A stretch of 64,000 nt of DNA from the IMG/VR virus record IMGVR_UViG_3300029845_000007. The stretch is one strand, 5' to 3'. Shown here piece by piece: positions 45,618 to 50,330 of the stretch; positions within the stretch are counted from its first letter, which is position 1, and every line of letters starts with the position of its first letter. Under the pieces are notes generated by a model. The model saw nothing but the letters and a program-made list of their open reading frames with translations. It did no database searches and had not been told where the DNA came from. The position numbers were made by a program, and so were the translations under genes. The stretch comes from a virus.

Positions 45618-46307
45618 TTATATTTGTAATAAGTTTGTAGCAACAATAAACTTTTGAGGTTTACCATTAGGAATAAGACCTTCAATAGTATTCTGTCCTT
45701 GAATATCAGAAAGACGAACAATCTTATAACCAACACAAACTACTGTTTCAGCAATAGTAGTAATCAATTTACCATTGTCACCTTTCTTTTCAATAGTCGC
45801 AGGACTTACCTCATTACCAAGTAAACTAATAACAGAACCAGTACTAACCTTACGGAATATCTCACCACGAGCAATACTTATATTTAAGTCTTGGTCACTA
45901 CGAATAAATTCAGCAAGATTATAAGGAGTAAGTTCATTGCTACGAGGATTACAATCTATACCCATAAATACGTCAGAAGGAGCGACATATAAGAAACGAT
46001 TAAGCAAAGCTCTATCGCCTTCTTTAACATCATCACTATAATTAGCTTTAACTAATATGAACTTAGTATTACCAGTACCTTTTAAGTCAGGATTAATAAT
46101 TTCACGAAGTTTAGCAGTCTGAATAATAGCAACAATACCAAAATGCTTGAAAGGAGTAATATTCTTAACTCTTTCAGAAACATATTGGAAATCAATTTCT
46201 GCCATGTGTTGAGGAACTAGGAAAGTCTCTCCTTTAGTTTTGTTCTCTAAGTGTAGCATAATTACTTTAATTAGATTATTAATATTATTAATTAAGTTGA
46301 CTAACAT
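45618..46307 (-). CDS. First gene of the minus-strand operon. Hypothetical protein (229 aa).
   Basis: ORF immediately downstream of the divergent control region. Confidence 0.55.
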   Translation of the reverse strand: MLVNLINNINNLIKVIMLHLENKTKGETFLVPQHMAEIDFQYVSERVKNITPFKHFGIVAIIQTAKLREIINPDLKGTGNTKFILVKANYSDDVKEGDRALLNRFLYVAPSDVFMGIDCNPRSNELTPYNLAEFIRSDQDLNISIARGEIFRKVSTGSVISLLGNEVSPATIEKKGDNGKLITTIAETVVCVGYKIVRLSDIQGQNTIEGLIPNGKPQKFIVATNLLQI

Positions 46308-46689: not shown

Positions 46690-46870
46690 GACTACTAACA
46701 ACAATAGATATACAGAAGGGAATTAGAAATACTATTAGAACTAACTAATGTATATAGACTTAGAAATAGGACTGGAACTACTGTTAGAAATAGAATTAGG
46801 AATAGGACTAATAATGAACTTAGAAATAGGATTAGGACTATTAGAAGAAATAAACTTAGAGGTACTACTA
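46690..46870. repeat. Degenerate tandem array of TTAGAAATAGGAnTAGGACTA-like units (4–5 copies). Iteron-like.
   Basis: Read directly from the sequence. The ORF 46748..47008 is just the translation of this array. Confidence 0.75.
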
Positions 46871-46978
46871 TTAGTGCTGCCCCACAAAATAATATTTTTC
46901 ATGAGTATATTTTTATCGAGACGAAGCTCCTACCCTGATAGCCCCCTGCTCTCAAACCAATTCCAATACCCCCGTCAA

Positions 46979-47005
46979 GACCAAATGACTTTAAACATAT
47001 TGCTA
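46979..47005 (+). promoter_or_regulatory. First copy of the conserved 27-bp box (GA)CCAAATGACTtTAAACATATTGC. Candidate early promoter or operator.
   Basis: A near-identical sequence recurs at 47368 and 47404. Confidence 0.4.
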
Positions 47006-47366: not shown

Positions 47367-47367
47367 T

Positions 47368-47437
47368 CAAACCAAATGACTATAAACATATTGCAGTTAC
47401 TATCAAACCAAATGACTATAAACATATTGCCATTGTG
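47368..47437 (+). promoter_or_regulatory. Tandem duplication (36-bp period, 2 copies) of CAAACCAAATGACTATAAACATATTGC. It lies 70–140 bp upstream of gene 47506. Candidate promoter or operator.
   Basis: Read directly from the sequence. Confidence 0.45.
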
Positions 47438-47505: not shown

Positions 47506-48180
47506 ATGGGAACAAGAGTTAATGATGCAGCTAGAAAAGCTGCTGAAGAAGCTGCTAAGAAAGCTGCCGAAGAAGCTAAAGCTAACGCTAGTAATGATGC
47601 TAGTAACGATGCTAGTAATGATGCACGTATCGTTGATTTGTCCGAGTATCACGGAAAAGACGCAGACGATATTACTCGTCTGTTGCTTGACCGTCCTGAT
47701 TTCGAGAATCACGATAGCTTGATGATTACTAATATCATTGATAATAGCAGTCGTTATGCAGGTGCTCTTACCATTGTTGTTAACCGTAACCTTCCACAGT
47801 TTGTGAAAGATGCTGCAAGTGGTGATTATGTCGAGTCTGTAACTCGTAATATCTTTACCACTCGTATTCAGCTATCTGCAATACTGAAAGGTCAAGGCGA
47901 ACCAATGCTTGCCAATGCTGTTATGACTGCACCGTTATCAGTGCTGCACGTTATCTTCAAGAAGGCACGTATTAGCGTGCTTGGACACGTGCTTGGAGCA
48001 GGTGAGATATTTGTAAATCCGTATGCCAGTAAAATGGCTAAGGAGGAACGTGTTAATGAACACGACCGTTACGAGTATTTCCCATACGAACTAAGTATGC
48101 GTAGTTTGTCCCTTGCGGACGAAATGCTCGTAGCCGACATGTTGGCTAAATACCAGCCTGATGCAGAGAGTGCTGCTTAA
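47506..48180 (+). CDS. GC-rich foreign-looking protein (224 aa) with an N-terminal Ala/Glu/Lys-rich helix and (NDAS)3 repeats. Function unknown.
   Basis: ORF whose codon usage and GC content (roughly 45–50%) differ sharply from the flanking DNA. A perfect 10-bp stem with a GAAA tetraloop hairpin follows the stop at 48191–48214. Confidence 0.65.
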   Translation: MGTRVNDAARKAAEEAAKKAAEEAKANASNDASNDASNDARIVDLSEYHGKDADDITRLLLDRPDFENHDSLMITNIIDNSSRYAGALTIVVNRNLPQFVKDAASGDYVESVTRNIFTTRIQLSAILKGQGEPMLANAVMTAPLSVLHVIFKKARISVLGHVLGAGEIFVNPYASKMAKEERVNEHDRYEYFPYELSMRSLSLADEMLVADMLAKYQPDAESAA

Positions 48181-48338
48181 CCAGTTACGTAGGAGAGAGA
48201 AATCTCTCCTACTAAACTAAGAATACACCATTCGGCACGTGTTCGACAATACTACCGACTTATGCTCGCCGTCCGGCAAAGCCTTCGGGCACAGCCGTCA
48301 GGCAAAGCCACTAAGGATTGGAAACGACACTAGTCACC

Positions 48339-48390
48339 TGATAAGCGAAATGCTACAACTGATAAGCGAATCCAACCAACTGATAAGCTA
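48339..48390 (+). repeat. Three direct repeats CTGATAAGCGAA / CTGATAAGCGAA / CTGATAAGCTA at 20–21 bp spacing. Iterons.
   Basis: Read directly from the sequence. The third copy overlaps the stop of the wHTH gene. Confidence 0.8.
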
Positions 48391-48903
48391 TTTGTCCGAA
48401 TACAGTCTCATGTAATCCGATACGAACTTGTTTCTATCTCCCATGAACATCATATTATGGTTTATGATATAGACATTGTTCTTATCATTAATAGCTTTAG
48501 CTATAAAGTTAGCATCGATTAGTTGACGGATACCGTCACTTATTCTCTGTTGACTAACAGACAATTCACCAGCAATCTTAGTTTGGTTAAGTACTATCCA
48601 GTTACAACCGAAACCTATATTCCTATATATGTAATTCAACATGGATAAACCATGGGTCTTTAAATATCTTAGGTTAGACATTCCATCGAAGTACAACTGC
48701 ATAAAGTTACCTGTATATCTAACTTTATCATCTTCGATTACAACAATTGTCTTACCTGTCTTATTAGCCCATTGTTTAAGCTCGTCAAGACTGTCGTCAG
48801 AACAATCTTTAGGATTAATATTAAAAGGAAATACAGTAGGTTTGATAAGATTGTCCACTGGTTGGACTTTAGCATTAGCTTTAGCATTTGTTTCTACTTT
48901 CAT
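48388..48903 (-). CDS. Winged-HTH DNA-binding protein (171 aa). Either a small Rep-like initiator (RepL-like) or an autoregulated repressor.
   Basis: The segment ELSVSQQRISDGIRQLIDANFI is HTH-like. Iterons lie at its 3' side and two palindromic operators in its promoter region. Confidence 0.6.
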   Translation of the reverse strand: MKVETNAKANAKVQPVDNLIKPTVFPFNINPKDCSDDSLDELKQWANKTGKTIVVIEDDKVRYTGNFMQLYFDGMSNLRYLKTHGLSMLNYIYRNIGFGCNWIVLNQTKIAGELSVSQQRISDGIRQLIDANFIAKAINDKNNVYIINHNMMFMGDRNKFVSDYMRLYSDK

Positions 48904-48945
48904 AATTGTTAATTTATAGTTAAAAACTCATTTTCGGCTTCTAAA

Positions 48946-49008
48946 TTACACAGATTTGCGTGTAAAAACAAGCATTACACCTAGTATTTTACACAGATTT
49001 GCGTGTAA
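48946..49008. promoter_or_regulatory. Two copies of the 20-bp palindromic operator TTACACagatttgcGTGTAA, 43 bp apart, with an extra ATTACAC half-site between them.
   Basis: Perfect 6-bp inverted half-sites with an 8-bp spacer. They lie 40–105 bp upstream of the wHTH gene start. Confidence 0.7.
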
Positions 49009-49059
49009 TTTGAAATTCGTAACTGACTGATAATGACCGATTTAACATAAAATTAACAC

Positions 49060-50330
49060 GCTATAACAAGATAGGGAATCTTGTAAAAAATAGATTTTTA
49101 TTTTGTATATGCAAATATAATACTATTTTTTTTATTAGCTCACCTATTCGATGACTATTGTCGTAGACAATAGGAAGAAGCTCATACAATAACAACAGTA
49201 GTATCAACAATAGTATTATCAACATCAGTAGTATGAATAGTATGAATAGTATTATCAACATCAATAGGAAGAAGACTATTACTAATATCAATAGCATCAA
49301 TAGTAGTATGAATAGTAAGATATAGAGATGATAGCGAAACTACATTCCCTTAACTCAATATAACTCCTCACACTTACTAAATTAAACCTCTTAATGTTTA
49401 CTTTTGAACCTATTCAAAATCCATATAGAGTATAAATCAAATTTATTCGATTGTACTATTATCGCTATGTTTCCGATACTATATTTCCGATACTCTATCG
49501 TCATTGTTACTATCGTCATTGTTATTATATTATATTATTATACTATCACATGTTATTACTATTACTATTAGGTTTTAATCTAATCTCACTATTGCCAATC
49601 TCACTATATACTATTAGTATTATATCTTGGTTGTATTGTATGAGGTCTAGTTCCTATTCTTACAGAATAGTTCACTAGTATATTAATACTATATATAACA
49701 TCTGATAACGAGAATACCAATAGATTGAATATAAGGCTATATAATAGACTGGATAGTATTATTACCAATAGATTGGATAATAGAATAAGTATAGTAATAT
49801 GTATAAATATGTATAGATATGTATTACTATTAATATCTAGATTACTATTTGGTTTGTTACTTAGCTGGTCTAGTCCCGCTCGCAAAGCTCGCTTTTCTCC
49901 CCCATAAAGGAGCGTGATTGCTGTTACATCTTCACCTTTTATTTACCATTTAACTTATATCATTATGAATACCGATATTTATTTCTTTATAATAACTGTA
50001 TTACTATTTGTTATTACTACTCTCTTACTGAATAACTATCTCATTGATAAGAAGTCTAATATTTTGTCTATGACAATATTTATTATAGCTGTTATGGCTA
50101 TCGTTATTATCTGTGTTGCAATATTTAATCTTTCTAGTATATGACTACTTATCAATTCCATATATTTCTATCTTTAATTGGAATAGTTATATGTCTGTTG
50201 TATTTGATGTTTAATTACCTTTCTTATAAGAAGGTTTTTATCGTCCGTTCTTTAGTTCAAACTATAATAACTTATATAATAGTTATTAGCTTTATTCGTT
50301 TACTATATCGTACTATATTATTATGATATA
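49060..50330. repeat. AT-rich repeat-dense region and probable replication origin. It contains the palindrome CTATTGTCgtaGACAATAG (49156–49175). Several short motifs each occur as two or three direct copies: agtagtatgaatagta, tattatcaacatca, tttccgatact, atcgtcattgtta and accaatagattgRata.
   Basis: Read directly from the sequence. It lies in the strand-switch region. The ORFs called here are low-complexity hydrophobic translations of AT-rich repeats. Confidence 0.6.
49897..49925 (+). repeat. Copy of the GC-rich element TCTCCCCCATAAAGGAGCGTGATTGCTGT. Its AAGGAG-N4-GTG provides the start of ORF 49914..50144.
   Basis: Read directly from the sequence. Confidence 0.8.

Follow-up and report, generated by a model that had tools for sequence, protein, structure and literature searches.

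Genes of the RepL kind are already known in crAss-like phages. repL has been annotated in p-crAssphage (Carjivirus communis) since 2014 and has been discussed as the basis of a phage-plasmid lifestyle (PMC10983915, PMC10136315). Two annotated repL genes are present in that genome (PMC10136315), and a preprint that draws on P1 has built a phage-plasmid model on repL, with repL in 19 further Crassvirales (PMC10983915). Here, we analyzed a 64,000-nucleotide stretch of viral DNA (IMG/VR record IMGVR_UViG_3300029845_000007, called the window throughout) that contains a gene of this family beside a gene for a protein resembling single-stranded DNA-binding protein (SSB). An initial annotation of this DNA considered a Rep gene unexpected in a supposedly strictly lytic crAss-like phage, an expectation at odds with the published repL genes (PMC10983915, PMC10136315). 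What is new here is that the gene lies in a cassette that is optional in the crAss002 genus, together with the insertion site of this cassette, the co-varying pair of putative operators that it carries and the assignment of crAss002 gp80 as SSB-like.

The closest described counterpart of the 171-amino-acid (171-aa) product of the repL-like gene is KP06_gp43 of p-crAssphage, to which it is homologous over the winged helix-turn-helix (wHTH) core and the C-terminus. The two loci differ in arrangement and lineage. In the window the gene is inverted, lies in a hypervariable slot of a divergent strand switch, belongs to another subfamily (Churivirinae, Jahgtovirus) and is carried by a minority of genomes. 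The upstream region of gp43 itself is without TTAYAC-N8-GTRTAA sites; close relatives in the gp43 slot (56-73% identity, in crAss genomes of ~92-99 kb) share paired palindromes with the window.

As a comparison, the RepL proteins of small Firmicute plasmids (PF05732; pSN2-type plasmids and small Bacillus/Priestia plasmids) resemble the window protein in size (~160-230 aa) and in having a single winged helix. The window protein is 28-30% identical to RepL- or MarR-annotated proteins of non-mobilizable Bacillus/Priestia plasmids of 4-18 kb, and on some Bacillus plasmids of 4-10 kb the RepL-like protein is the sole recognizable DNA-binding gene. However, this likeness is distant, the gene is carried here by a phage of Bacteroidota, and a replication role in this branch is predicted only. 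We found no relative of the 171-aa protein on a Bacteroides plasmid or in a GTDB genome, and a pattern-limited scan of 185k bacterial and archaeal species genomes found no RepL relatives. A common logic also connects the locus with autoregulated iteron-type initiators (Rep_3/RepA of pPS10, F and R6K) and with P1 RepL/oriL, namely a small wHTH protein paired with an inverted repeat over its own promoter and with AT-rich DNA. Unlike the iteron-type initiators, the window protein has one winged-helix domain and no Pfam Rep_3 match (none at E <= 1), and its cassette has no gene-linked direct-repeat iterons and no partition or addiction genes.

The window comes from a crAss-like, crAss002-like phage of the genus Jahgtovirus (Intestiviridae, Churivirinae). 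Between 46.3 and 50.4 kb it is ~86-87% identical to Bacteroides phage crAss002 (MN917146) and to cr107_1 (MT774377), with about half of this region aligning. A long block of minus-strand genes ends at 46307 and a plus-strand block begins at ~50379; the repeat-dense locus is a divergent strand-switch region. Comparison with relatives indicates that it consists of two unrelated and independent modules. Module A (47506-48390) contains the gene for a 224-aa SSB-like protein, a hairpin and a GC-rich repeat array. Module B (48391-49147) is an AT-rich cassette with the 171-aa gene and its control region. From these comparisons, it is the AT-rich wHTH cassette that is mobile, whereas module A is ancestral core phage DNA.

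This division differs from the initial annotation, which described an acquired GC-rich island with a Rep, iteron and operator module in which CTGATAAGC iterons are bound by the wHTH protein. The sequence features listed there all exist and are non-random, with coordinates off by 1-2 nt, and their conservation in relatives gives independent support. The raised GC content and deviating codon usage at 47.5-48.4 kb are also real. The segment 47506-48390 has 44.5% GC compared with 31.9% for the window (z = 3.8 over 900-nt windows) and is the highest stretch of the window, and the GC content at third codon positions (GC3) of the 224-aa open reading frame (ORF) is 0.338, compared with 0.08-0.26 for most other genes. 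What the comparison with related genomes overturned is the foreign origin. A scan of IMG/VR with boxes 1 and 2 of the array as the pattern returned 34 further loci. The 224-aa gene was found in every locus that reached far enough upstream, with 84-96% amino-acid identity, and the hairpin and array were present too. In total, 36 loci with the box pattern, crAss002 among them, share module A. The crAss002 and cr107_1 sequences are nearly identical to the window over the 224-aa gene, the hairpin, the GC-rich spacer and the three CTGATAAGC boxes. The same high GC recurs across the family of the 224-aa protein, at 0.44 in crAss002 gp80, 0.42 in p-crAssphage gp02 (compared with 0.30 locally) and 0.47 in a 52%-identical homolog. 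Because it is elevated family-wide, the high GC is explained by the amino-acid composition, and probably by the level of expression, and not by recent transfer.

The alignment with crAss002 and cr107_1 ends right after CTGATAAGCTA (48390) and picks up again at ~49148. This interval is the accessory cassette (48391..49147, 757 bp, minus strand). Its left edge is the last CTGATAAGCTA, and a conserved inverted repeat, CTATTGTC-GTA-GACAATAG (49155-49173), marks the right boundary of the slot. The slot after the third box is hypervariable, with at least six unrelated fillings of 195-757 bp. Among 30 classifiable loci, the 171-aa gene occupies the slot in four (the window, L008, L015 and L031), a 59-aa gene (gp79) in eight, including crAss002, and a 71-aa gene in five; the remaining 13 have no ORF there. 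More diverged versions of the 171-aa gene (82-87% identity) were found in the same slot of further metagenome contigs. It is this RepL cassette that varies between relatives, and its composition is phage-like, with 26-34% GC.

Two observations favor the island model in addition to the elevated GC: the boxes abut the 3' end of the 171-aa gene, and a palindrome containing CTGATAA also lies upstream of RepL genes. However, the 224-aa gene, hairpin and boxes are present in all relatives, ~87% of which are without the wHTH gene, and the Carjivirus-type RepL loci elsewhere have the palindromes and no CTGATAAGC array. The boxes are thus not the grammar of RepL that they were taken for. Members of the SSB family share high GC as a conserved feature, and CTGATAA is common; we set aside the sharing of this heptamer between the boxes and the RepL-upstream palindrome as uninformative since it occurs 31 times in the window. 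The comparative data already largely refute the island model, and we now give it hardly any credence.

We also noted other fillings of the slot, located at L001 1977-2439 and downstream of the boxes in L016, L017, L030 and L036. The 59-aa gene of crAss002 (gp79) has the cr107_1 annotation 'PH domain, transcription activator', and the 71-aa gene looks unrelated but has an N-terminal pattern similar to that of the 59-aa gene. In several variants (L001 ~2240-2440, which is crAss002, L016 and L036), a (TA)n tract of ~12 units precedes a palindromic, GC-rich segment in which purines and pyrimidines alternate (GCGCGCGTAC...ACGTGCGTGTACGCGTGCGTA...GTACACGTGCGC), DNA that is prone to form cruciforms or Z-DNA; in the window the RepL cassette stands in place of this segment. 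The GC3 of the slot RepL gene is 0.34 compared with 0.07-0.21 in the Carjivirus-type homologs (L037-L044, L039), which suggests either that the codon usage of the cassette has shifted since transfer or that the donor was another lineage.

Sequence and profile comparisons identify the product of the 171-aa gene (48388..48903, minus strand, with a TAG stop that uses the conserved CTA after the last box) as a RepL-family winged-helix protein homologous to gp43 RepL, in line with the wHTH and Rep-like protein of the initial annotation. It matches Pfam RepL (PF05732) with 30.0 bits against a gathering cut-off of 20.3 (E 4.4e-7), with residues 58-159 aligning to positions 29-127 of the 164 in the profile, and most of its close homologs carry precomputed PF05732 matches. 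Its C-terminal half and wHTH core match p-crAssphage KP06_gp43, annotated as 'putative plasmid replication initiation protein RepL', with 32% identity in tblastn (E 1e-8), and hhalign gives a probability of 97.7% (E 1.4e-12) for the same pair. The AlphaFold2 model has a predicted local distance difference test (pLDDT) score of 58.7 overall and 65-88 in the core, where residues 83-147 form a canonical winged helix (H83-95, E102-104, H107-113, H118-130, E134-136, E144-147). Foldseek matches to this model are wHTH proteins, with CodY, MarR, ArsR, TubR and plasmid Rep winged helices as neighbors (E 3e-3 to 4e-2).

Other family assignments did not fit as well. The MarR score is 16 bits compared with a gathering score of 24.6, and the fold likeness is real but generic to wHTH proteins. 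The cassette has a single gene and no adjacent NTPase, and the likeness to TubR is marginal (the sole match in a PDB sequence search, at E 0.8, and rank 17 in Foldseek), which does not fit a partition module. Of the alternatives offered in the initial annotation, a Rep or partition module or a repressor switch, the RepL wHTH protein and the autoregulatory operators are retained here; the iterons as sites of this protein and the partition module are not. The nearest relatives outside Jahgtovirus, with 56-73% identity, occupy the gp43 position in crAss genomes of 92-99 kb, where all of them are the last gene of the replication block and convergent with the giant RNA-polymerase gene. The window gene is not in this position and is instead in the divergent switch region, convergent with the SSB-like gene.

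The control region of the 171-aa gene (48904..49147, minus strand, ~245 bp, 26% GC) aligns with the upstream regions of Carjivirus-type RepL genes. It contains two copies of the 20-bp palindrome TTACACAGATTTGCGTGTAA, a proximal one at 48946-48965 and a distal one at 48989-49008, 43 bp apart, and these are the two matches to TTACACAGATTTGCGTGTAA in the window compared with 0.28 expected. In three complete IMG/VR genomes, the exact palindrome likewise occurs only at the two sites before the gene itself. Two 20-bp sites were present in all 13 loci examined, at ~-50/-62 and -92/-105 from the ATG and 42-43 bp apart. Depending on the lineage, the arms read TTACAC...GTGTAA or TTATAC...GTATAA, and they change together on both sides, in both sites and in both genomic contexts. 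We found one hybrid site only, and three lineages have the whole distal site in reverse orientation. The alignment between the window and the Carjivirus-type loci (genes with 56-73% identity) extends over the whole ~245-bp upstream region, including its palindromic motifs and AT-rich tract. Farther upstream, the conserved motifs are a CTGATTATCAG-like palindrome, GTTAATTT.TAGTTAA and the AT-rich tract.

The proximal site lies between (C/T)TTG and TAATTTAG/TAAATTTG boxes, which we take to resemble the -33 TTTG and -7 TAnnTTTG elements of Bacteroides. In the window the -7-like box is TAATTTAG (48941-48948, minus strand) and the -33-like element is TGCTTG (48969-48974), between the palindromes. 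The palindromes that the initial annotation described thus exist with their 43-bp spacing, travel and co-vary with the gene, and sit on its promoter region. The autoregulatory operator that was read into them agrees with this arrangement, and on sequence grounds they are probably the cognate operators of RepL. From the same data we infer that the 171-aa protein binds these sites.

Operators on a promoter are also the classic architecture of a repressor, and the 171-aa protein could be purely a MarR/CodY-like repressor that acts as a switch of the regulatory or immunity type and takes no part in replication, the name RepL reflecting the shared winged helix only. Its best structural neighbors are CodY and MarR repressors, there are marginal Pfam MarR and NCBIfam MarR/ArsR matches, and MarR is a frequent annotation of the related proteins on Bacillus plasmids. 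On the other hand, Pfam RepL alone passes its curated cut-off. The only exact operator sites in each genome are the two before the gene itself, and a repressor that controls only itself makes little sense without a second activity. In addition, the gene is accompanied by ~245 bp of AT-rich DNA with multiple motifs, and a promoter would need less. We consider the pure repressor unlikely, although it is the strongest of the rival explanations.

The explanation we prefer for module B is that the cassette was imported by recombination into the hypervariable slot from a gp43-type position in Carjivirus-like phages. The 171-aa product would bind as a dimer to the two 20-bp palindromes, which are four helical turns apart, and occupation of the proximal site between the -33-like and -7-like elements would shut off transcription of its own gene. 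Autorepression of this kind is the simplest mechanism, and we regard it as probable. If autoregulated plasmid initiators and small RepL-only plasmids are a guide, the bound protein may also start replication in the neighboring AT-rich DNA and so give carriers of the cassette an extra, phage-independent start site. An auxiliary initiator of this sort is plausible because a regulator that controls only itself usually has a second job and because the family is linked to plasmid initiators. Initiator function of the 171-aa protein is nevertheless a tentative proposal that may well prove wrong.

Module A begins with the gene for the 224-aa protein (47506..48180, plus strand), a homolog of crAss002 gp80 and p-crAssphage gp02 'ssb'. 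This protein has no Pfam match, including Pfam SSB, and no PHROG, NCBIfam or PDB sequence match above threshold; for it and the 171-aa protein together, NCBIfam returned only sub-threshold MarR/ArsR and TolA low-complexity matches, and PHROGs contained no family for either. Members of its small family (1676 clusters at 90% identity, 42 representatives at 50%) come from contigs of crAss size. The AlphaFold model is confident (pLDDT 80.7, from a 23-sequence alignment). When it was compared with viral models in Foldseek, crAss proteins were matched at E 1e-12 to 1e-6, followed by many phage SSBs, and one match at E 2.8e-11 is the cr110_1 "single stranded DNA-binding protein". Profile comparison with hhalign against p-crAssphage KP06_gp02 "putative ssb" gave a probability of 81.8%. 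Although the sequences of gp02 and the cr110_1 SSB are highly diverged from that of the 224-aa protein, gp02 occupies the same genomic place, among the first plus-strand genes beside the strand switch, and is likewise GC-elevated. Together, these models and comparisons suggest that the 224-aa protein and crAss002 gp80 are most plausibly SSB-like OB-fold proteins, with predicted binding to single-stranded DNA. Residues ~11-40 (window 47537-47624) form a low-complexity N-terminus encoded by 12-nt tandem repeats (AAEE/KKAA and ASND units). This Ala/Lys/Glu-rich segment and the ASND repeats vary in length among the homologs (223-244 aa) and are disordered in the AlphaFold2 model.

Upstream of this gene there are copies of a 28-nt motif, TCAAACCAAATGACTATAAACATATTGC, at 46976-47003 (86% match), 47367-47394 and 47403-47430. 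All three are on the plus strand and only upstream of small plus-strand ORFs and the SSB-like gene, and none is expected by chance. The motif is also duplicated at the same position upstream of the 52%-identical SSB homolog (L045 331-400). It is a candidate promoter for a phage RNA polymerase, perhaps that of the virion. A sigma-70 promoter scan performed no better on this DNA than on shuffled sequence, with a model not built for promoters of Bacteroides or of phage RNA polymerases. The duplicated motif might drive abundant expression of the SSB-like OB-fold gene.

Directly 3' of the SSB stop codon is a hairpin, GTAGGAGAGA-GAAA-TCTCTCCTAC (48189-48212, plus strand), with a perfect 10-bp stem and a GAAA loop, which the initial annotation had placed at 48191-48214. 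Three sequence variants occur among relatives and each has a perfect 10-bp stem. Three pairs of the stem show compensatory double changes in 7-12 of 33 sequences, and no pair is broken. Selection would thus keep this end of the SSB gene paired. The hairpin is not followed by a T-run that would give the U-tract of an intrinsic terminator (the tail is ACTAAACTAAG), and a terminator scan was silent, but terminators of Bacteroides or phage RNA polymerases may deviate from the scanned model. From its position and co-variation, the hairpin is likely to be a terminator or an RNA-stability element.

The hairpin is followed by a non-coding, GC-rich (48%) repeat array (48213..48390) that is conserved in relatives and contains three repeat families. 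A ~24-nt unit (TTCGACAATACTCTCGACTTATGC, 48242-48265) occurs in 1-3 copies among relatives. A 13-nt tandem repeat (GCCGTCCGGCAAAGCC / GCCTTCGGGCACAGCC / GCCGTCAGGCAAAGCC, ATCCGGCAAAGCT-like, 48268-48309) occurs in 0-6 copies. The three CTGATAAGC boxes start at 48338, 48359 and 48380 with an exact spacing of 21 bp, and these are the only copies in 64 kb compared with 0.7 expected by chance; the stop codon of the 171-aa ORF overlaps the last of them. The 21-bp phase of the boxes is kept in relatives. A 58-aa ORF across the array (48239..48415) was rejected as a gene since 13-nt indels break its frame in relatives, and crAss002 gp79 (59 aa) was rejected as its homolog because gp79 lies past the homology break, inside the variable slot. 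The copy numbers of the 13-nt and ~24-nt repeats differ among genomes that are otherwise ~90% identical, as in a variable-number tandem repeat, and could serve as a strain marker.

The segment 48189-48390 has the highest GC in an AT-rich genome, contains a hairpin with real co-variation and immediately follows a gene whose expression is probably high. It could, therefore, be a structured non-coding RNA or a functional 3' untranslated region of the SSB mRNA rather than an array acting as DNA. However, no pair co-varies in the remaining 175 bp beyond the hairpin, and copy numbers of 0-6 for the 13-nt and 1-3 for the 24-nt repeat are incompatible with a fixed fold. No Rfam match was obtained even at E <= 1, and exact 21-bp phasing of boxes is typical of sites on one face of DNA. 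An RNA function for the segment is thus highly unlikely. Rather, we infer that the array acts at the DNA level, as a platform to which a conserved factor of the phage or the host would bind.

Because short phased repeats lie beside an SSB gene at a strand switch, part of a replication origin or an early control region is the most natural and, in our explanation, the most plausible role for this platform. That the array is part of an origin specifically is a realistic possibility, judged from its sequence context, but one short of being probable. A pac site or another packaging or recombination signal would also account for a repeat array. crAss002 has been predicted to package DNA by a headful mechanism from a pac site (PMC8042965), and the hypervariable slot starts exactly at the edge of the array, as expected near DNA that is cut or recombined. 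Yet the array is far from the terminase gene, and an origin would account at least equally well for short phased repeats at a divergent switch with an SSB gene alongside. A packaging signal is, in our view, improbable, marginally less so than an RNA.

Distant SSB homologs keep the order of SSB gene, hairpin and short repeats with other repeat sequences (L047 1400-1560 and L045 1081-1270). In L045 (52% SSB identity) there are two copies of ATAAGCC, and in L047 (30%) there are three of CAAATGATGGT, as well as CACCTGATAAG, which matches the context of the first box in the window. In p-crAssphage BK010471 (L048 1713-2374), a 660-bp non-coding stretch lies two small genes downstream of ssb gp02. 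It contains repeated ATAACCTCTAGTTATATC-like units and an asymmetric purine-rich/pyrimidine-rich tract, and may be a counterpart of the array. The gp02-gp06 region of p-crAssphage has different repeats from the iterons of the window, and there is no Pfam RepL match in gp06 or gp08.

Taken as a whole, we give this explanation, with a core SSB-hairpin-array module and an imported, self-regulating RepL cassette, a probability of about 0.6. Several points weigh against it. DNA binding, autoregulation and initiation are predictions from sequence and models. The structural neighbors of the 171-aa protein are mostly the transcriptional repressors CodY and MarR, with Rep and TubR lower in the list; confidence in its AlphaFold2 model is only moderate, and the Pfam match is confined to the wHTH core. 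crAss002 replicates without the cassette, so the cassette cannot be the main initiator or essential for lytic replication in the genus. The array could equally be a pac site or an array for transcription factors. Lastly, boxes 1 and 2 were the search pattern in IMG/VR, so that their conservation is partly imposed.

The flanks of the locus contain AT-rich tandem repeats of 9-36 nt (AGTATGAAT, CAACAATAGTAT and others; window 49187-49320 and 46720-46876). The low-complexity ORFs that arise from them, such as the minus-strand ORF 49061..49300, are spurious. Their copy number varies among relatives, and L036 encodes MNSMNS... repeats. Searches with Rfam at gathering thresholds over the whole window and at E <= 1 over 46.3-50.4 kb, and with ARAGORN, found nothing relevant.

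crAss-like phages persist for years without lysogeny, and for p-crAssphage the genomic case for a phage-plasmid lifestyle is made mainly from its RepL genes (PMC10983915). The results described here recast the GC-rich "island" as ancestral core DNA rather than a foreign insertion, and they provide a conserved candidate for a phage origin in the SSB gene, hairpin and phased-repeat array. The RepL module is optional in the genus of crAss002, a member of which has been cultured, so that near-isogenic genomes with and without RepL exist in nature. The two 20-bp operators of the cassette are defined, co-vary and are open to direct tests. A more far-reaching idea is that the 757-bp cassette is an autonomous mini-replicon, with initiator, operators plus origin and AT-rich unwinding tract, that hops between crAss lineages. 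A crAss002-like phage with the cassette could be maintained as an episome at low copy number or could initiate replication at a second origin. The SSB-hairpin-iteron array would then be the primary origin, and its edge a recombination hot spot for accessory modules. We consider this idea a long shot. If it is true, the presence or absence of RepL in a cultivable genus would directly test the disputed phage-plasmid or carrier-state hypothesis.

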